From positions 62,538 through 126,537 of the forward strand of contig JBPOJC010000013.1 of the NCBI GenBank assembly GCA_052034135.1: DNA of 64,000 nucleotides, read 5' to 3'. Below, piece by piece: positions 7,061-63,261 of this stretch. How positions within the stretch are numbered: position 1 is the stretch's first letter; every line of letters starts with the position of its first letter. Made by a program: the position numbers and the translations under genes. Below the pieces are notes generated by a model. It made no database searches. It had not been told where the DNA came from and was given only the letters and a program-made list of their open reading frames with translations. This DNA is from Caldisericota bacterium. Its GTDB lineage: Bacteria; Caldisericota; Caldisericia; UBA6126; JAGPKI01.

Positions 7061-8548
7061 TTAAATATTTAAAGCAAAGTAGATTATCATAATAATTAAC
7101 GATACACACATAAACCAGTTTAGTTCAGACTTTTTACCGCTCAGCAGTCTAAAAATGTTTATTATTGTATAAGTTCCAAAACCCAAAAGAAGTCCTAAAG
7201 CTGGATTCATACACATAAAACCCACAATAACCATAATAATTGCTGGAATAAATTCATAAATAGCATCGATATTTATTTTTTCAGATGCATACTTTAAAAT
7301 TAATCCGCCTGATCCGATCAAAATAACCGAGATCGCAGCGGGTGATACAAAGAAATTAGTGTATGGAAAAAGTAGCGAAAAAAGTAGCATTAAAAGACCA
7401 CAAAATACAGCCGTTAATCCAGTTTTACCTTCATTTATAATTGGTATGGCAGATTCAGAAGAATATGTATAGTATGTTGTATTAGTTAATGTACCAATTA
7501 AAGCTGATAAACCATTAACTCTACTAAGTTTTGAGAATTTATCACTACTCTCAATATCTCCTTCATCTTTTCCATATTCTAAAAGAGAACTTGTGAAAAA
7601 TAAGTTTGAAAAGAACAAAATTATGAAGAAAGAAAAACTCAGCTTAAGAAGAGCAGTAGAAGAAAGCCTTATTATTTCCCAAAATTTGCCGAAGGCTTGT
7701 AGGTTTAGGAATGTTTTAAATGATGTAAGCTTAGAAAAAATTATTTCAAAGCCCTCAGGACGTAAAATATTTTCTATAGGAGAAAATCTTACGAAATTAG
7801 ATATTGCCCCTTTGGAAAGTCCAGATGACCAATTTATAGGAATGATAAAGCCCAATACAGCCATAATGATAAAGGTAATAATAAAAGAGTATTTATTTTT
7901 ACTCATATAAAGAACAACAAAGAGACAAATGCCAATAATTGTTAGCAGGGGTACAGGAGATAAGATATTTCCAAGACTTAATGGAAACGTAAAACTTATA
8001 GATGGAGCAACTCCCCCTAATGTAGTTGCTGGTGTAGGCACCTCAGTTTTAGTGATTAATCCTGAATTTATAAGACCAAAAAAGATAAGAAGTAATCCAA
8101 GAATTAAAGCAAAAAAGTTGCTTAATGACTTAGGTATTAGTTCAAGAAAACGATTTTTTTTAAAGAATATTGTGACAATTACGAATAAAAGCGAACCAAT
8201 AAATGCAGATACAAGGACGTATTCAAGCTGATGGCCCAGATATATATGACCAGTAACAGCAATCATTATTGAAAAAATTATATTTGGTACAATAGCAAAT
8301 GGTAGATTGGTTAGGAAGCCACTTAAAATAGTTAAAAGCCCTGAAGTTATTCCAATAATAATTATTAATGCAGGGTATACAAGGTTTAGCTCCCCAGGGG
8401 TGAATGAATCTTTAAGTATATCGGCAGTAAATTTTATTAATATGTATGAAGAAAGAAAAAGTATAAGACCTGCATATAACTCATTTTTGATTGAGCTACC
8501 TCGATCTTTTAACCTAAAAAAATTAGTAATAAATGCTGGTTTAACCAT
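7061..8548 (-). CDS. NCS2-family AzgA-like purine (adenine/guanine/hypoxanthine) permease.
   Basis: It is a ~12-TM protein. The N-terminal RLKDRGSSIKNELYAGLILFLSSYILI matches the AzgA box KLREHGTT.RTE.IAG.TTFLTM.YI, and the C-terminal GKTGLTAV..G.L.LL also matches. Confidence 0.65.
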   Translation of the reverse strand: MVKPAFITNFFRLKDRGSSIKNELYAGLILFLSSYILIKFTADILKDSFTPGELNLVYPALIIIIGITSGLLTILSGFLTNLPFAIVPNIIFSIMIAVTGHIYLGHQLEYVLVSAFIGSLLFVIVTIFFKKNRFLELIPKSLSNFFALILGLLLIFFGLINSGLITKTEVPTPATTLGGVAPSISFTFPLSLGNILSPVPLLTIIGICLFVVLYMSKNKYSFIITFIIMAVLGFIIPINWSSGLSKGAISNFVRFSPIENILRPEGFEIIFSKLTSFKTFLNLQAFGKFWEIIRLSSTALLKLSFSFFIILFFSNLFFTSSLLEYGKDEGDIESSDKFSKLSRVNGLSALIGTLTNTTYYTYSSESAIPIINEGKTGLTAVFCGLLMLLFSLLFPYTNFFVSPAAISVILIGSGGLILKYASEKINIDAIYEFIPAIIMVIVGFMCMNPALGLLLGFGTYTIINIFRLLSGKKSELNWFMCVSLIIMIIYFALNI

Positions 8549-9068
8549 TATTTATACTTACCTCCTCTATATAATGTTTGGCAACTTCTAAATAGTGAGT
8601 AGCTGAATTATTTATCTGTTCTATTTCTTCTTTTGTGAGTTCTCTAACAACACGCGCAGGAACTCCCATAACTAAAGAATTTTCTGGAATAAATTTATTT
8701 TCAGTTACAACTGCTCCAGCTGCTATTAATGAATTCTTAGAAATATGAGCGCCATTCAAAATTATAGCCCCCATGCCAACTAAAACATTATCATCTATTT
8801 TGCATGCATGTAATATTGCATTGTGTCCGACGGTAACTCTATTTCCTACTATTGCTGGAATATCCTCCTCTACATGGATTGTAGCATTGTCTTGAATGTT
8901 TGTCTCCTCGCCAATTATTATAGGCGCAATATCAGCCCTAAGAACAGCATTGAACCATATACTTGAATTTAAAAATAGTTTAACATTTCCGATTATTCGG
9001 GCACTATCTGCTATGAATATGGCATTAAGGACATCTGGAACCATTCCTTTATATGGTATAAGCTTCAT
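8541..9068 (-). CDS. Gamma-class carbonic anhydrase / hexapeptide-repeat (YrdA/PaaY-like) protein.
   Basis: It has a left-handed beta-helix hexapeptide pattern. The His ligands (HVEEDI, HNAILH) are typical of the gamma-CA family. Confidence 0.75.
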   Translation of the reverse strand: MKLIPYKGMVPDVLNAIFIADSARIIGNVKLFLNSSIWFNAVLRADIAPIIIGEETNIQDNATIHVEEDIPAIVGNRVTVGHNAILHACKIDDNVLVGMGAIILNGAHISKNSLIAAGAVVTENKFIPENSLVMGVPARVVRELTKEEIEQINNSATHYLEVAKHYIEEVSINNG

Positions 9069-9289
9069 TTTTCATTCACCTTTTTCTTTCTACTAATTCT
9101 TTTGGTAATTATACCTTATTTAGATTGCTTTACTAAATAGCTTTGAAATTTTTTTGTAAATCATTTTTATTCATTTTTTATGTATTTATATCTCTTAGAT
9201 CATTATCGAAATCATTTATCAGGAATCAAGTATTCTTCGTTATTCTCGAGTTTTTATCTTATCGAGAGCCCTACTCCAATAATTCTTTA

Positions 9290-9630
9290 GGGAATCCAGA
9301 AAGCAATAAATAATATGGATCCCCGATAAAAGATTTCGGGAATTACAGATACTGAAATTCCTCAGGACGAGTATGGCAATACCACACTTTCGGGATGACA
9401 CCCACACCCGTCACCCTGAGGAGCGTATTTTACTTCGTAAGGGTCTCCGCTCACCACCACGTCACCCCGAGGAGCGTATCTGAAAGCGACGAAGGGTCTC
9501 CTCTTTTTATTCTTGCATACACAGTAAATGCAAATAAAACATAAACCAAAATCCCACAAATGGTAAAAGACAGATACTGAGATTCCTTAAGGACTTGTGC
9601 GAAAATACCGCACTTTCAGAATAACGAAGA
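9290..9630. repeat. Copy 1 of a mosaic dispersed intergenic repeat family (modules A and C, with an internal tandem sub-repeat).
   Basis: A 50-nt stretch gggaatccagaaagcaataaataatatggatccccgataaaagatttcggg is identical to 22303..22352. The downstream modules (cgtcaccctgaggagcgtat..., present twice in tandem) recur in reverse complement at 61088..61322 and 62870..63035. Confidence 0.8.
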
Positions 9631-22170: not shown

Positions 22171-22237
22171 AATACACTTAAATCTAATTATGGAAAATAT
22201 TATAAATTATACACTCTGAATCATAACCACATTACCG

Positions 22238-22410
22238 TCTTCCTGAGGGAGTGTATTTTGCGACCGAAGGATCCCATTCTCGGTGTCATTCCAAGCGATT
22301 GCGGGAATCCAGAAAGCAATAAATAATATGGATCCCCGATAAAAGATTTCGGGGATGACAGTTGTGTGGATTTCGGGGATGACAAAAGTAAAAAGAGGAG
22401 ATTCTTCGTT
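22238..22410. repeat. Copy 2 of the mosaic dispersed repeat family (module A plus a hairpin module).
   Basis: It shares 50 identical nt with 9290..9340. It contains the perfect hairpin atccccga-taaaagatt-tcggggat and a tandem tttcggggatgaca motif. 22325..22380 is the reverse complement of 61262..61320. Confidence 0.8.
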
Positions 22411-26648: not shown

Positions 26649-27221
26649 AGTTGAAATAACTTCCGCATTATATATTGAGTTTTCTTTATTAATTAAATCG
26701 ATCGAAGGTTTATCCTATTATTCTTGGATTTTCTCTTTGTGTATTTCTTATATAATTCATTATCATTATATAAATGTATCTATTTGGAATTCGGTATCAT
26801 TTGTTATCCTCGAATGTATTTATTGAGGATCCAGACCAATTACCGAAAGTTTTGAATGACTGAATTAACAATTTTACCCCACTATATACTTATATTATTG
26901 TTCTACCCCACTAATTAATTGGACGGTTTGTAATAAAATTAAGAGTACAAATAAGGTAGTAGTACTCGAACTTGCTTTTATACAACCCCAACCATATATA
27001 ACCCTAAGCTATTCATTGGTAGAGATGAAGTTCTTTATGGCTATGAAACCTTACAAAGGTACAAATATTTAATACATAAGTATTCTACTATAAATGTTTT
27101 CAAAGTTCTTGATTCCTTCTTATGCAGAAATAATAACATATATTAAATAGTGTTGAGATATACATTTTTTATAGATACAGTTAGGAATAACGGAAAGATA
27201 GAAAATAAGATTTTAACTTTA

Positions 27222-35210: not shown

Positions 35211-38200
35211 ATGAAAAACTTTTTCTTAAGGATCATTTCAATTATATGTATATTGATTATTACATTTCCAATTTTCAGTGCATTCCCTTTTGATGTCAGA
35301 GGAGATACCTTAAAATACGCAGTTGTTACACCAAAAATTAATGTTAGAAATGCTCCATCTCTATCAGCTGATATAATTTATGTTATTGAAGAAAGAGGAG
35401 AATTTTTAATAACACGTGAAACAAAAGATACTGATGGCAAATTATGGTATAAAGTCAAAATAAATGATAATCTTGAAGGATTCATTGCTTCATGGGTTGT
35501 AGATAGAATAAAAACTGTTCAAACAGAAACAGAGGTAAAAGGAAAAATTGCAATAATTGAAAGTGGCGTAAGAATTCGCACAGAACCTTCTACGGATTCT
35601 GAAATAAAACTTATCGTAAGCGAAAGAGTCGAAAAAGAAATATATGCTGAAATAAAAGATTCTCAAAATCAATTGTGGTATAAAATTAAACTTAATGACG
35701 GCTCTTTTGGATGGGTAGCATCATGGGTAGTTGAAATTAAAGCTAACGTAGAGAATACAAAAAGTGCCAGCACAAAACTAATTATCATTGATCCACCTGT
35801 TAATTTAAGAAAAGGTCCTGGACTTAAATATGAATTAGTTACAGCTATCAATAGCCATCTTGAAACAAGAGGAATATATGAGGCAAAAGATGAATTTGAT
35901 AGAATTTGGTATATGATTAAATTACCGAATGGCGTTGAGGGATGGGTTGCATCCTGGGTGGTCACAGTAAAAGAATATAGCGAAGAAAAGACTCCAGTAT
36001 CTGATAAAGTAGCTGTCATCGATCCAATAGTAAATGTTCGCGATGCTCCGAGTATCGATGGGAAAATTATTACTACTATTAGTAGCAGAGGGGAATTTCA
36101 GATACTTTATCAGGGTAAAGATGTTAATGGAAAGATCTGGTATGAAATAAAACTTTCAAATGGCACTGGATGGGTTGCATCATGGGTTATACAGGTAAAG
36201 AGTAAAAAAGGAGAAGCAGAAACAAACGATTCAGTTAATGTTCGCAAAGGTCCGGGAACAAATTTTGAAAAACTTTTTGAAATGCCTGCTAATTCTGAAG
36301 TGACAATATTAGGAAGTGCTTATATTTCAAGTGGTGAATATTGGCTTGCTATACAATCACAAGATAAAAAAGGGTGGGTTTTAAGTTCACTAATATCTTC
36401 TGTTAAGAAAGATAATCTTGTAAGCATTGAGAGGGTTGGAGCCACTTTTTCTATTTCTCAAAATATTATAATTGAAGTTTATGAAGGTCCTGAAAAAAGT
36501 TACAAAAGAAAGGGTACGCTTGACTCTAAATTTGGTGTTATATCAATTGTTGGAGTTGCAAAAAATTTCCAGGGTGAATTATGGTATCAAATAAAAGGAA
36601 CAAAGTTTGATGAATCATGGGTAGATAACCAAAGTATTGCTCTATTTCTAAAGGAAAACGATTATAAGCAGCACAAAATAACAGGGTTATCATGGGCTTT
36701 AAAGTCAAAAGGTATTGCTTTATCTATAGCTTTCGATGAAGATGGTACTTATGAATTCAATAGTTTTGTATTGGATAATCCTTTAAGGTTTGTAATTGAT
36801 ATAAAGAATTCGATTCTATTTCAAAAAGAGTATGCCGAAGAAATTAACAAAGAAAATATCTCTAAGGTTAAAGCAACACAATTTTCTGTAAATCCAAATA
36901 TTGTAAGGATTGTTCTTGATCTTGGAAAAAATCTTTCTTACATAGTCACGAAAGAAAAGGGTAAGCTTGTAATAGAACTGACTGATTATTCAGAATACTC
37001 CGGACCAAAGCTTTTCATTGGTGGAACAGAGATTGAAAATAATTTACTACTTAAGTATTATAATAATGTACTTTATGTTCCATTGTACATCTTTTCAAAT
37101 ATGACAGGAGGAATAATTTCCTGGGATGAAAAAAGTAAAGAAGCAATATTTAAACTCTACAACAAAGAGTATAGATTCAAGTCAGGAGATATGTATATTT
37201 TCATTAAAGGACCTGAACATGAAAGCAGGCTTGAAATTAATAATCCAATTACTATTTTAAATGACACTCTTTACGTTGCAGTTTCTGACTGCGGAAAAAT
37301 ATTCTCACTTACATACACTAATTTTTCCAATCTTCACTATCTTGATAATACAATAACTGGAATTTACTTGAAAGAAGCAAAAGAAGGGAAAATATTAACA
37401 ACAGAATACGCTTTACCAGCTAAAGTTGAATTAAAAAAAGATGGAAATACACTCAATGTCATAAACAAAAATACACTCCTTGGAAGTTCAATTAAAATTC
37501 CAGATGATGAAATTATTGCTAAAATTATTTCAAACAAAAGAGGACAAAGCCAACAAGCTGAATCAGTGATTCAACTTAATATATCGAAACTTCCAAGATA
37601 TGAGTCAGCATTTCTTTACGATAACCACCAATTAATTCTTACTCTTAAATCAGGCAAGAGTAAAGGCATAGAGGGTAAATTAATTATTGTTGATGCAGGG
37701 CATGGTGCTTTTTCTGAAGATGGCTATTATGACACAGGCGCTATTGGACCAACTGGATTACTTGAAAGCACAGTTAATTTAAAAGTAGCACTAAAACTAA
37801 AAGACCTATTGGAAAAAGAAGGCGCAAAAGTAATTTTAACGAGAGAAAAAGAGCAGGATAAAAATAGCCCAACTCTTGAAAAAAGAGTTGAAGATGCAAA
37901 TAAGAGTGGAGCAGACCTGTTTATTTCAATTCATCAAAATGCCTCTGTTGATCAAAAAGCAAGTGGTACTGAAGTCTATTATTACAATGACAACTCTTCA
38001 CCAATTGCACAGTTTATTTTAGATGCATTGTGCTCAAAAATTGGGCTTATTTCTCGTGGAGTTAAAAAGAGAGGTTTTGCTGTAACGCAGGATATAACCG
38101 TTATGCCCTCAATACTTGTTGAGTGCGCATTTATATCAAATCCTGCAGAAGAGAAATTACTTGGAAGCGATAGTTTTTTAAATTTGATAGCAGAAGGATT

Positions 38201-38234
38201 GCTCGTTGGAGTAAAAAAGTTTTTTGAAAGCTAA
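35211..38234 (+). CDS. Secreted multi-SH3b-repeat cell-wall hydrolase with a C-terminal N-acetylmuramoyl-L-alanine amidase (Amidase_3) domain.
   Basis: There is a signal peptide and six SH3b-like repeats (WYKVKINDNLEGFIASWVV and variants). The C-terminal amidase_3 motifs are IIVDAGHGA...DTGAIGP...E...H. Confidence 0.8.
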   Translation: MKNFFLRIISIICILIITFPIFSAFPFDVRGDTLKYAVVTPKINVRNAPSLSADIIYVIEERGEFLITRETKDTDGKLWYKVKINDNLEGFIASWVVDRIKTVQTETEVKGKIAIIESGVRIRTEPSTDSEIKLIVSERVEKEIYAEIKDSQNQLWYKIKLNDGSFGWVASWVVEIKANVENTKSASTKLIIIDPPVNLRKGPGLKYELVTAINSHLETRGIYEAKDEFDRIWYMIKLPNGVEGWVASWVVTVKEYSEEKTPVSDKVAVIDPIVNVRDAPSIDGKIITTISSRGEFQILYQGKDVNGKIWYEIKLSNGTGWVASWVIQVKSKKGEAETNDSVNVRKGPGTNFEKLFEMPANSEVTILGSAYISSGEYWLAIQSQDKKGWVLSSLISSVKKDNLVSIERVGATFSISQNIIIEVYEGPEKSYKRKGTLDSKFGVISIVGVAKNFQGELWYQIKGTKFDESWVDNQSIALFLKENDYKQHKITGLSWALKSKGIALSIAFDEDGTYEFNSFVLDNPLRFVIDIKNSILFQKEYAEEINKENISKVKATQFSVNPNIVRIVLDLGKNLSYIVTKEKGKLVIELTDYSEYSGPKLFIGGTEIENNLLLKYYNNVLYVPLYIFSNMTGGIISWDEKSKEAIFKLYNKEYRFKSGDMYIFIKGPEHESRLEINNPITILNDTLYVAVSDCGKIFSLTYTNFSNLHYLDNTITGIYLKEAKEGKILTTEYALPAKVELKKDGNTLNVINKNTLLGSSIKIPDDEIIAKIISNKRGQSQQAESVIQLNISKLPRYESAFLYDNHQLILTLKSGKSKGIEGKLIIVDAGHGAFSEDGYYDTGAIGPTGLLESTVNLKVALKLKDLLEKEGAKVILTREKEQDKNSPTLEKRVEDANKSGADLFISIHQNASVDQKASGTEVYYYNDNSSPIAQFILDALCSKIGLISRGVKKRGFAVTQDITVMPSILVECAFISNPAEEKLLGSDSFLNLIAEGLLVGVKKFFES

Positions 38235-38277: not shown

Positions 38278-38351
38278 GCGCCTATAGCTCAACTGGATAG
38301 AGCGACGGTCTACGGAACCGTAGGTTGCAGGTTCAAATCCTGTTAGGCGCA
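38278..38351 (+). tRNA. tRNA-Arg (anticodon ACG).
   Basis: It folds into a cloverleaf by hand: acceptor GCGCCTA/TAGGCGC, D arm GCTC..GAGC, anticodon stem ACGGT/ACCGT with loop CTACGGA, and T arm GCAGG-TTCAAAT-CCTGT. It is 74 nt including the discriminator A. Confidence 0.85.
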
Positions 38352-60883: not shown

Positions 60884-60957
60884 GCGCCTGTAGCTCAGTT
60901 GGATAGAGCATCTGCCTTCTAAGCAGGTGGCCGTGGGTTCGAGTCCCGCCAGGCGCA
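60884..60957 (+). tRNA. tRNA-Arg (anticodon TCT).
   Basis: It folds into a cloverleaf by hand: acceptor GCGCCTG/CAGGCGC, D arm GCTC..GAGC, anticodon stem TCTGC/GCAGG with loop CTTCTAA, and T arm GTGGG-TTCGAGT-CCCGC. It is 74 nt. Confidence 0.85.
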
Positions 60958-61087
60958 GATATATACAAAATTAAATTTTATATAAGTCTTTTTGTTTATT
61001 TTTGATCTAAGATAAATCGCTTTTAGTCTTATAATTTCAATATAATGAAAGGAAATATCATATCCTCCAGAGAATAATGAGACATTC

Positions 61088-61322
61088 TGAGTGAAGAATC
61101 TCCTTGCTTGCATTTTATTCTGGATTCCCGCTTTCGCGGGAATGACCCGCAAGGAGATCCTTCGGTCGCTTTTAGATACGCTCCTCAGGGTGACAGGAGT
61201 AGTGTCATTCTGAAGTGCGGTATTTTCGCACACGTACTGAGGTATCTCCTTATTTGTTTTTGTCATCCCCGAATTCCACGCAACTGTCATCCCCGAATGT
61301 CTTTATCGGGGATCCAGACTGT
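61088..61322. repeat. Copy 3 of the mosaic dispersed repeat family, inverted relative to copies 1 and 2.
   Basis: 61262..61320 is the reverse complement of 22325..22380. 61170..61250 is the reverse complement of the 9345..9510 module (cgctcctcagggtgacagg versus cctgtcaccctgaggagcg). Confidence 0.8.
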
Positions 61323-61359
61323 CTTGCTTCTTTCAAATGAGACAAAATCTCACTCATAA

Positions 61360-62370
61360 TTAATCAGTAGCTCCAAAACTTAACTTCAATTTTAAATTAT
61401 ATTCTTTATTTTTAATTTTCCTACTTTCTTTTGCTTTTAATATTTTATCCTCTCTTTCTTTTAATATTTCCTCTGGATTACCTCTATAGTAATCAACAGG
61501 TCTTAAGTAGTTAATACTTGAATGAAGCCTCTCATTGTTATAGTAGTCTACATATTTTGCAATTATTTGTTCTGCGTCAGTGAATGTAGCAGGATAATCT
61601 TTTCTTAAAGCTTCCTGCCTTAATAAACCATTCCACCTTTCTAATTTACCATTAGTTTCCGGGTGGTTTCTTCTTGTTCTAATGTCAATTAGGTAAGCCA
61701 ACGATATTACTTCTCTGAATTCTTTTGAGATAAATTGAGAGCCATTATCATGTATTATCTTTGGAGATATTTCTCTGTTTTTATCAAGGATTTCTTGAAT
61801 GAATAAACTTACGCTCTTTGAACTAATATCTGGTAATAACTTCCATCCTACTATATACCTCGAATAACCATCAAGGACAGCAATAAGAAATCCCCATATT
61901 TCACTCACTTTTATATACATTATGTCCGTATGCCAATGTTCGTTTACTTTAGTTGGTTTTTCTTTGTATTCCTTTTCTGCTCTTCCTTTGATGTTGCCCC
62001 ATCTATTAAGAAGATTATATTTTGTTAAGATTCCGTAAACTTGTTGGGGAGTTAAATAGACGATATCTTCATCTATCATCTGGTAAGTTAATTTCTTATA
62101 GCCAATTCCTGGATTTAATTTTGCATATCTTACTACAATATCTTCCTCTTCTTTTAATACCTTTATTAGGGTTTAACAAAAGGAATCTTAGGGGTTTCTT
62201 TTCCTTTTAACCATCTATAATAGGTAGCTCTGCCTTATTACAAAGCTTTTCTAATATCCACTCCAACTTAAAGCCAGTAAGTTCTTTCATTCTTTTAACT
62301 TCTTCTTTTATTATTTCTTTAAGTTCTTTATCCTTAACATTGTGTCCTATAATTCCCCAAGATTTTTTTT
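61360..62370 (-). pseudogene. IS3-family transposase OrfB (rve/DDE integrase core). The N-terminal part appears frameshifted.
   Basis: The intact ORF 61360..62079 carries the DDE core (WHTDIMYI..., HDNGSQF, NGKLERWN). Between ~62185 and ~62225 all three frames contain stops. The -1 frame out of the A9 site ends at ...PIIDG*, while the conserved OrfB N-terminal box (RYAKLNPGIGYKKLTYQM) is in another frame. Joining them would need two indels. Confidence 0.5.
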
Positions 62371-62667
62371 TAAAATAAGGTTCTCTTCTGCCAGAGTTGC
62401 AATTACATTCTTCATTCTATCAATTTCAGCTTCTTTTAACTTTTCTTTTCTACTTCTCTTATTAATACCATTCTTAAATGATTCATAAGCTCCTTCCAAG
62501 AATTTCTTCTGCCAGGTATAGTATTGCCTTGTATCAATATTATACTTTTTACATACTTCTGATACAGGTACTTTACCAACTAATACCTCTTTTACAATTT
62601 CAAACTTCTTCTCAGGACTAAAATGCCTCCTGTTAGATCCATTAACATTTTTTGGTTCTACAACCAT
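62347..62667 (-). CDS. IS3-family transposase OrfA (HTH plus leucine zipper).
   Basis: It is 106 aa. The HTH is VSEVCKKYNIDTRQYYTW, and L-x6 heptads occur near the C-terminus. An RBS AAGGAGGA lies upstream. Confidence 0.8.
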   Translation of the reverse strand: MVVEPKNVNGSNRRHFSPEKKFEIVKEVLVGKVPVSEVCKKYNIDTRQYYTWQKKFLEGAYESFKNGINKRSRKEKLKEAEIDRMKNVIATLAEENLILKKNLGEL

Positions 62668-62869
62668 TTTTAAAGTATCCTCCTTTTAATGTTATTTTAA
62701 GGATACCACTAATTAATTTATGATTAAAGTGTTGTCTCATTTTGTTTATAACTTGACAAGACCAATGTTTTTGTTTTATAAGTATTATAAGATAGGTGAT
62801 CTTTACGAGCAAAATACAGATACGCTTCTTAAGGATAACGATGAGTGACTTGAGACTCCTTCATCGACG

Positions 62870-63035
62870 GAAATAGTGCTCCTCAGGGTGACAGAAGGGC
62901 TGTTATTCCCGAAATCAATTATAAGGAAATTCAGTATTTTTTGTAAAAAAAGACATTTTTGCCTGTTCTTTTCTATTCTCATATGGCAGAATTCTAGTTC
63001 ATTTCTCCATCCTCAAGTGTCTTTATCGGAAATTC
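62870..63035. repeat. Copy 4 (degenerate) of the mosaic dispersed repeat family, on the other side of the IS.
   Basis: gctcctcagggtgacag and gtgtctttatcgg are shared with 61180..61320 in the same orientation. Confidence 0.6.
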
Positions 63036-63261
63036 AATATTCTTTAATTAATTACTACTTTTTGAATTTTTGTCTTCATGGAAATTACATATTGTATATG
63101 TATTCCTACTTCTTCAGTATAACTTAAAGGATTTCATTGAGAATAAAACATAGTAGAACATAGTTTTTGTTACTACTTTCTCGGTATTTATTATGAACCT
63201 TTAAAAAGTAGTAGAATTGATCTTTAGTTAAAAATAAAAATTTATCAATATATAATTTAAT

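Follow-up and report, generated by a model that had tools for sequence, protein, structure and literature searches.

Hairpin repeats occupy five intergenic loci (L1 to L5) of a 64,000-nucleotide stretch of contig JBPOJC010000013.1 (assembly GCA_052034135.1, positions 62,538 to 126,537, forward strand), referred to below as the window. The host, an uncultured bacterium of the phylum Caldisericota, belongs to the Caldisericia and comes from anaerobic digesters; the GC content of the window is 31%. To judge from their sequences, the repeats belong to the NTS/SRM class of hairpin repeats, which is tied to the Ssn nucleases, GIY-YIG enzymes acting on single-stranded DNA (ssDNA). The loci are, with fair confidence, clusters of Ssn-related hairpin repeats of the class that includes Neisseria NTS/dRS3, and they form partly decayed mosaics resembling Neisseria intergenic mosaic elements (NIMEs) and bacterial interspersed mosaic elements (BIMEs). 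NIMEs are repeat units of 50-150 bp bounded by the 20-bp palindromic dRS3 pattern.

Agreement of the Units with the NTS/SRM Class

The Neisseria NTS consensus, CGTCATTCCCGCGMAVGCGGGAATCYRG, contains the dRS3 sequence ATTCCC-N8-GGGAAT, and a degenerate Ssn-related motif (SRM) was defined in the same study (Chenal et al., Nat Commun 2025, PMC11893778). These hairpins are recognized, as ssDNA only, by small GIY-YIG proteins of a single domain (SsnA, cd10448), which bind them and cut just upstream; cutting was shown in vitro for four Ssn proteins, and SsnA had no action on RNA (PMC11893778). Cleavage depends critically on the three bases (GTC) that precede the palindrome and binding on the C that follows it, and the repeats often lie on both sides of ssn genes (PMC11893778). 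The published SRM search pattern, HGTCWYN(0-2)YYVSBRHN(0-5)WNVSBRGN(0-2)RNCYNB, is a heuristic built from 29 genomes (PMC11893778).

Alignment of the modules of the window, by eye and by script, revealed one oriented plan in all of them: a head reading GTCA(T/C), then a stem-loop that is palindromic or composite, and an ATCC(AG) or TCTCC tail. Unit A is GTCATCCCCGA-loop9-TCGGGGATCCAG, unit E is GTCATTCCCGCGAAAGCGGGAATCCAG, unit C is GTCACCCTGAGGAGCGTAT...CGAAGGGTCTCC, and unit D consists of GTCATTCTGAAG, an inner hairpin, and CTGAGGTATCTCC. A 24-nt half-unit, made up of head, 5′ arm, and filler, sits ahead of the complete A unit. The mosaic arises from the way these modules are combined: as doublets joined tail to tail, as pairs joined head to head, as arrays of 24-nt half-units, and as larger A-D-C composites.

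The clearest agreement with the published class was found in L3, where the E unit at 61120-61147 (minus strand; gGTCATTCCCGCGAAAGCGGGAATCCAG) matches 27 of the 28 positions of the NTS consensus, the first base alone differing. No other unit of the window meets the consensus, the sequence at 22285-22312 being a diverged copy, and the E unit also holds the sole perfect dRS3 pattern of the window (61124-61143). In both A and E, GTC stands directly 5′ and C directly 3′ of the palindrome (GTC-A...T-CC), and head and tail are kept in C and D. A relaxed SRM pattern, in which the first base was free and the loop could be as many as 4 bases longer, gave three matches (22328-22360, 61120-61147, and 61285-61317) compared with 0.09 in shuffles (100 made). 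The original prediction, made from the letters of the DNA alone, had left the nature of the family unassigned; with the E match and the verbatim occurrence of unit A in many phyla (see below), that description no longer applies.

The oriented design, the potential to form ssDNA hairpins, and, in the lineage, the flanking of ssn by units on both sides are shared with the published NTS/SRM repeats, and occurrence in many intergenic copies appears to be so too. The host differs, being a member of the Caldisericota, whereas PMC11893778 emphasizes Pseudomonadati and host-associated bacteria. Most units of the window also have longer loops (9 nt in A) or composite inner hairpins (C and D), and the tail-to-tail doublets, half-unit arrays, and A-D-C composites are not described in PMC11893778. 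With Neisseria dRS3/NIME, the repeats have in common the ATTCCC-N8-GGGAAT pattern and, it appears, the clustering of hairpin-bounded units as intergenic mosaics. They differ in occurring in an unrelated phylum at 31% GC, in containing only one perfect dRS3, and in the lineage-specific C and D units, and no link to DNA uptake sequences or filamentous phages was seen here. The other hairpins of the window have arms that differ from dRS3 (ATCCCCGA), and the interspersed units measure 24-55 nt.

Folding and RNA Families

Units A and E were found to fold as ssDNA with a folding free energy (dG) of -7.7 to -9.0 and z-scores of -3.2 to -5.6. The original prediction had proposed folding and Rfam scans as a check, and in the latter the only match was one of 26.1 bits (E 0.024) between 61080-61169 (minus strand) and FtrB (RF02748), which lies below threshold. 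This match bears on the alternative that the loci encode small RNAs (sRNAs) or cis-regulatory RNA, such as an FtrB-like sRNA, a terminator, or an attenuator. FtrB is a real Francisella transcript with an NTS-like hairpin (PMC3091763), and several units of the window are positioned in 5′ or 3′ gene regions. The score is, however, far under the gathering value (66 bits), with only the hairpin aligning, and no other Rfam match was obtained. L1 and L3 contain no terminator-like sites, and T-tails are missing from the hairpins. Further points against an RNA role are the two orientations of units inside a single locus, the divergent, tandem, and convergent gene contexts of the loci, the inactivity of SsnA on RNA (PMC11893778), and the lack of a phenotype on ftrB deletion (PMC3091763). 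Encoding of functional RNA is consequently regarded as improbable. Terminators and known RNA families were rejected on the strength of the terminator and Rfam scans.

The window locus is not a member of RF02748, although the two have the NTS-like hairpin GUCAUUCCCGCG-NNN-GCGGGAAUC in common. The Rfam FtrB consensus contains such a hairpin (GUCAUUCCCGCGUAGGCGGGAAUC). This sequence likeness suggests that the published FtrB sRNA may itself be a transcribed Ssn-type repeat; its authors reported no relatives outside Francisella (PMC3091763).

Repeat Loci in the Window

Modules had originally been recognized at four intergenic loci. Those four do share modules, but a fifth (L5, 26803-26860) also exists, and the five loci together contain ∼20 units in the 64 kb of the window. 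Every locus is intergenic, with L1 between divergent genes, L2 and L4 between tandem genes, and L3 and L5 between convergent genes, and both unit orientations are present inside a single locus.

That the sharing of modules is real and non-random, as claimed, was evident from blastn-short comparison of the loci with the window. Positions 9290-9340 of L1 are identical to 22303-22353 of L2 over 51 nt (100%, E 6e-24); ungapped extension gave 59 nt at 97% as the strongest L1/L2 match. In reverse complement, 22329-22387 of L2 matches 61316-61258 of L3 (59 nt, 90%, E 1e-14) and 9461-9502 of L1 matches 61194-61152 of L3 (43 nt, 91%). Shorter L1/L3 matches were 20/20 (9596-9615 with 61232-61213) and 19/19 (9410-9428 with 61194-61176). 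Motif counts were similarly enriched: TTCGGGGATGACA occurs four times (22348, 22372, 61261, and 61285) against 0.04 expected in the window, spaced at 24 nt in L2 and L3 alike, and GTCACCCTGAGGAGCGTAT occurs three times against 0.01 expected. Tandem duplication of the gaagggtctcc-type (C) unit in L1 was borne out, the copies lying 51 nt apart.

The identical block of L1 and L2 had been described as 50 nt long and as containing the hairpin atccccga-N9-tcggggat. The block is real but is 51 nt long and ends inside the 3′ arm. The hairpin is imperfect in L1, where tcgggaat replaces tcggggat; perfect copies are found at 22332-22356 and 61289-61313. Reverse-complement modules, reported for loci 3 and 4, are well represented in L3, but L4 (∼62795 to 63036) is only a weak and decayed copy with a 17-nt exact match and a 29-nt stretch at 79%. 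L5 is also decayed, with 87% identity to 61289-61319. The units are listed below by position and strand.

9281-9299, plus: L1, E-type (NTS-like) remnant with only 3′ arm and tail (GGGAATCCAG) intact; opens the 51-nt block identical to L2.
9316-9348, minus: L1, A-type hairpin with mutated head (GTAATTCCCGAAATCTTTTATCGGGGATCCA); tail-to-tail doublet with 9281-9299 across a 16-nt spacer.
9348-9399, minus: L1, D-type composite copy 3 (GTCATCCCGAAAG, inner hairpin, CTGAGGAATTTCAG); identified from sequence and inner-hairpin fold.
9410-9448, plus: L1, C-type copy 1 (GTCACCCTGAGGAGCGTAT...AAGGGTCTCC); identified by blastn and motif count.
9461-9501, plus: L1, C-type copy 2, tandem duplicate 51 nt after copy 1; conserved in alignment A1.
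9572-9625, minus: L1, D-type composite copy 2 with a decayed head (GTTATTC) and TGCG-GTATTTT-CGCA as its inner hairpin; 20/20 with 61213-61232.
22237-22275, plus: L2, decayed C-like unit (GTCTTCCTGAGGGAGTGTAT...CGAAGGATCCC); 14-nt match to 61156-61169.
22285-22312, plus: L2, E-like unit (GTCATTCCAAGCGATTGCGGGAATCCAG), left half of a doublet; same variant in Caldisericia loci L139/L143.
22329-22359, minus: L2, A-type hairpin, intact (GTCATCCCCGAAATCTTTTATCGGGGATCCA), completing the doublet on its right side; ssDNA dG -7.7, z -3.2, relaxed SRM match.
22360-22383, minus: L2, 24-nt half-unit in tandem with the A unit; identified by motif count.
26803-26860, no single strand: L5, decayed doublet of an A-like unit (26803-26836, plus) and an E-like remnant (26832-26860, minus); found by self-search of the window.
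61081-61103, plus: L3, short unit F (GACATTCTGAGTGAAGAATCTCC), tail-to-tail with E; compare GTCATTCTGAGCGAAGAATCTCC in other phyla.
61120-61146, minus: L3, E unit GTCATTCCCGCGAAAGCGGGAATCCAG; dG -9.0, z -5.6, NTS consensus match.
61153-61194, minus: L3, C-type unit; identified by blastn, motif count, and alignment A1.
61204-61249, plus: L3, D-type composite copy 1, a 9-nt spacer separating its head from that of the C unit; identified from sequence.
61262-61285, plus: L3, 24-nt half-unit; identified by motif count.
61286-61319, plus: L3, intact A-type hairpin GTCATCCCCGAATGTCTTTATCGGGGATCCAGAC; dG -8.4, z -3.3, identical 30-mer in nine loci of other phyla.
62795-62892, minus: L4, a pair of C-like units, both decayed (62852-62892 and 62795-62849); 17-nt exact match.
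62902-62934, plus: L4, decayed T-type hairpin (GTTATTCCCGAAATCAATTATAAGGAAATTCAG), head-to-head with 62852-62892 across 9 nt; compare GTCATTCCCGAAATCTTTTATCGGGAATCCAG in L139.
63008-63036, plus: L4, decayed A-like unit; 79% to 61288-61316.

The description of the family as a mosaic with differing module content was correct as to the mosaic, but the modules do not assort freely. The order A-D-C is common to L1 and the reverse complement of L3 (alignment A1) and was also seen in three metagenomic loci, in which varying numbers of units are inserted between conserved ends.

As originally stated, the elements are non-coding, and the open reading frames (ORFs) called across them merely echo the repeats. 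The string AFRYAPQGD appears in 61108-61359 (plus strand) and AFRYAPRGD/KYAPQGD in 9362-9559 (minus strand), and an 83-residue ORF spanning the repeats was essentially without relatives (one match among 5.8 billion proteins). The units account for the spurious gene-caller peptides VIPAKAGIQ, DSRFRGND, and AFRYAPQGD. A spurious 123-residue ORF (60919-61290, minus strand) overlaps a tRNA gene at 60884-60957, which lies 123 nt upstream of L3; the other tRNA gene of the window is at 38278-38351. A separate family of direct repeats at 35422-36596 represents coding repeats of a 1007-residue cell-wall amidase (35211-38234) with five SH3_3 repeats, an AMIN domain, and a Cu_amine_oxidN1 domain.

Half-units, consisting of head, 5′ arm, and ∼12 nt of filler, recur with a 24-25-nt period at 22360-22383 and 61262-61285 of the window and many times in the related contigs L139/L143. 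Abortive events or slippage are possible origins. Head-to-head junctions are often exactly 9 nt long (61195-61203 and 62893-62901 in the window, with 9400-9409 also listed), the spacer reading AGTAGTAAT in L139/L143 and AGGAGTAGT in the window. The 9-nt spacing was observed at 8 of 28 junctions in Caldisericia loci and at none in other phyla, which makes it a regularity of the lineage only.

Short-read (Logan/ENA) contigs of this organism consistently terminate inside L1 and L2. Those ending in L1 stop either ∼270 nt beyond the gene for the hexapeptide transferase or ∼205-247 nt upstream of mutS2; those ending in L2 stop ∼200 nt upstream of hisS. Breaks of this kind fit repeats present in many copies, and the units account for them.

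Insertion Sequences and Recombinase Targets

An IS3-family insertion sequence (IS) occupies 61335-62742, between L3 and L4, with orfA at 62347-62667 (HTH_Tnp_1) and orfB at 61360-62079 (rve). The 267-nt gap between orfA and orfB may mean that it is frameshifted or degraded, and no convincing target-site duplication was found for it. No other transposase was detected among 40 ORFs of the window scanned against Pfam.

That L3 and L4 flank this copy, and that an AT-rich genome inflates weak repeat calls (the self-search lists many chance families), could be taken to mean that the similarities are IS3 fragments or chance low-complexity matches. The E-values, down to 6e-24, and the motif counts of 4 against 0.04 and 3 against 0.01 speak strongly against this, as does the presence of the same units in >106 stretches of genomes of other phyla. 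Moreover, the 25-nt inverted repeats of the IS3 element (61335-61359 and 62718-62742) are unrelated to all modules, the nearest of which is an A unit ending at 61319, 16 nt away, and no IS lies near L1, L2, or L5. The initial view that the repeats are not IS or prophage fragments is upheld by these observations, and virtually no likelihood is left to the alternative. An IS3-end or chance origin was ruled out by the match statistics.

The units might instead serve a site-specific recombinase or a transposase as attachment or target sites, in the manner of dRS3 and filamentous prophages or of repetitive extragenic palindromes (REPs) and IS110/IS1111. The dRS3 sequence contained in E has been reported as a phage-recombinase target in Neisseria (PMC11893778), and the IS3 element between L3 and L4 lies 16 nt from an A unit. 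Against this, no integrase, piv, IS110 gene, or prophage was found in the window, an IS is present at only one locus of five, and multiplication of the units would be left unexplained. IS3-family elements are not known to target hairpins, which also counts against it. As an account of the family this is very improbable, while a side role as a recombinase target, as for dRS3, is possible.

Unit A and Its Doublets in Other Phyla

The exact unit A pattern, GTCATCCCCGAA-N4-TTTATCGGGGATCC, was found, by way of the search pattern GTCATCCCCGAANNNNTTTATCGGGGATCC, in >106 stretches of Genome Taxonomy Database (GTDB) genomes from many phyla. A less narrow, generic A pattern occurs in 20 IMG/VR contigs of 47-65% GC. 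Hosts among the matches listed include Desulfuromonadales, Omnitrophota, Calditrichota, Planctomycetales, Nitrospirota, Bacteroidota, Zetaproteobacteria, Iodobacter/Deefgea, Endomicrobium, Ignavibacteria, Coxiellaceae, and others. Conservation extends to the 9-nt loop (GAATGYYTTTATC; ATGYYTTTA), and the versions present in L3 and L2 turn up unchanged in other phyla, copies identical to the L2 unit at 22329-22359 being present in Omnitrophota and Planctomycetales contigs. Such loop conservation is unexpected for recognition of the stem only and points to loop contacts or recent horizontal spread.

Among the matches listed, 79 of 110 A units (72%) were joined tail to tail with a GTCATTCC-type hairpin, the spacer having a median length of 21 nt; on the head side, a partner was seen for none of the 110. 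The 51-nt block shared by L1 and L2 is such an A/GTCATTCC-type doublet.

Ssn Nuclease Genes in the Caldisericia Lineage

A scan of metagenomes with a 21-mer of the C module yielded seven loci, one of which, L141, represents the L1 locus itself (98.6% identity). Two contigs, L139 and L143, have 33% GC, are assigned to the Caldisericia by membership of 90% protein clusters, and are dense in E, A′, and T-type units and half-units; the L3 E unit has copies identical at 27 of 27 positions in them. Related Caldisericia contigs carry ∼100 heads per 15 kb. Small toxin-antitoxin and defense genes (PemK/MazF, ParE, HicAB, AbiEii, PIN, and PBECR2) are separated by dense hairpin mosaics on L139 (1-14887), L143, and L144-L153.

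A profile hidden Markov model (HMM) built from 118 Ssn-family proteins identified a 95-residue GIY-YIG protein, MENFYVYILASEKNG..., at 8263-8550 (minus strand) of L139 (E 2e-45; PF01541, E 5e-17). It is 66-72% identical to family members from other phyla. Assignment to the Ssn family rests on 66-80% identity to the retrieved family together with PF01541, and a PDB sequence search gave nothing closer than distant GIY-YIG proteins of the UPF0213 type. Some 20 variants sharing 96-100% identity were recovered, mostly on 0.5-1.5-kb contigs that end in repeats, and one of them was named from a Caldisericia metagenome-assembled genome (MAG). At least three paralogues (97-100% identity) lie on a single 69-kb contig, Ga0255347_1000526.

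In 15 contigs, ssn forms part of a cassette of ∼375 bp consisting of GTCATCCCCAACTTGATTGGGGATCCAG, 24 nt, ssn, 7 nt, and a reversed E unit. Its two heads face outward, and the sequence beyond the heads differs between contigs. The same heads-out flanking was found in Smithella and in a genome of the Omnitrophota. A Calditrichota contig has an A unit at a distance of 24 nt from the stop codon of ssn, and in one further genome ssn stands between doublets, not inside one. The gene neighbors on either side of the cassette vary between Caldisericia contigs, an arrangement that looks like integron-type cassette shuffling.

The ssn contigs came from digester samples other than those containing the strain of the window. 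In MAG GCA_028718345.1, the ssn contig has a GC content of 31%, like the window, and MutS2 MDD5689062.1 shares a 90% cluster with the MutS2 of the window. The accessions of Ssn MDD5688783.1 and MutS2 MDD5689062.1 are neighboring, which points to one MAG.

The identity of the enzyme gene also bears on the resemblance to REP and BIME elements. This resemblance was rightly noted at the outset, the repeats being dispersed, present in both orientations, and mosaic, and an analogy with REPs was drawn by Chenal et al. themselves (PMC11893778). With short extragenic palindromes in similarly laid out clusters, the units could be classical REP/BIME sequences mobilized or maintained by a REP-associated tyrosine transposase (RAYT) of the IS200/IS605 type (Y1). 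As in REP/BIME/REPIN systems, palindromes are paired in inverted orientation (REPIN-like doublets), mosaics are formed, and an enzyme gene is flanked by repeats. In contrast to these systems, the head is GTCA and not of the GTAG type, E corresponds to NTS, and each doublet pairs hairpins of two distinct types. Embedded between units is a gene that encodes a GIY-YIG nuclease instead of a Y1 (HUH) enzyme, and no Y1_Tnp domain was found among the 40 window ORFs (Pfam) or the called genes of the repeat-rich Caldisericia loci. Mobilization of the present units is only deduced. A RAYT-driven origin is judged highly improbable, and the RAYT-type REP reading was rejected on the wrong head, the lack of a Y1 transposase, and the association with a GIY-YIG gene.

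Discussion

Placement of the repeats in the Ssn-associated class has to be weighed against several observations. The strict published SRM pattern gave no match in the window; in E the first base is what departs from it, and in A the length of the loop. No significant ssDNA fold was found for unit C (z +0.3 to +1.1) or for unit D, in which folding occurs via the inner hairpin. The C head is absent from the cross-phylum A loci among the matches listed, from which C appears to be lineage-specific. The 64-kb window itself contains no ssn gene (best E 8.4 with the HMM), the 10 kb upstream of it (L131) contains no Ssn homologue, and A′ (CCCCAA-CTTG-ATTGGGG), the unit that flanks ssn, has no copy in the window. 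On sequence grounds ssn is present in close relatives of the host; a copy in the same assembly is putative. Mobility, finally, is a property that we infer for the units: no target-site duplication or empty site was observed at the repeat loci, and no insertion polymorphism was found at L2, the sole spanning contig having an identical L2 with the same 376-nt spacer and the others stopping in the repeat. The cleavage specificity of the Caldisericia Ssn is likewise a prediction.

Within the Ssn-associated interpretation, the following course of events can be proposed. Intact units would fold when DNA becomes single-stranded during replication, repair, or DNA uptake. By analogy with the published enzymes (PMC11893778), the folded units would be bound by the Ssn of the lineage and then nicked on the head strand, just 5′ of the head. 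On the same analogy, the units of the window would most likely be recognized as ssDNA by Ssn, and they have probably been spread by it. To go by their anatomy, the gene-less doublets may be non-autonomous derivatives of the ∼375-bp [unit → ssn ← unit] cassette that are spread or maintained by the Ssn nuclease, and many copies in the window (L4, L5, and parts of L1) would be decaying relics. For the host, the pay-off could be modulation of recombination, or the spread could be purely selfish.

The original prediction had also compared the repeats to miniature inverted-repeat transposable elements (MITEs). That comparison fits in part: the doublets have outward GTCAT heads as in the ssn cassette, but no target-site duplications were seen and the conserved structural unit is a tail-to-tail hairpin doublet, not a classical element with terminal inverted repeats. 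A more far-reaching proposal is that the [hairpin → ssn ← hairpin] cassette might be a minimal autonomous mobile element with a GIY-YIG nuclease in place of a transposase, the doublets being its MITE-like non-autonomous derivatives and, in Caldisericia, the mosaics also acting as integron-like recombination joints that shuffle small toxin-antitoxin and defense cassettes. This proposal is tentative and, in our estimation, doubtful. It is compatible with the data because the cassette ends are identical while the flanks differ, near-identical paralogues lie on one contig, and doublets account for 72% of A units. Transposition itself was not observed, nor was any target-site duplication or empty site.

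The repeat family of the window can now be placed in a mechanism-bearing class that was described only in 2025, and that class is extended to the Caldisericota, a deep-branching and mostly uncultured phylum. The published SRM pattern misses unit types that are common here, namely those with 9-nt loops, composites, and half-units. An explanation is needed both for a non-coding motif of 30 nt that is conserved, with its loop, across phyla, and for its regular pairing into doublets resembling the two ends of the ssn cassette. Taken together, the likeness of doublet and cassette and the conservation of the motif make the idea that Ssn mobilizes its own repeats directly testable.

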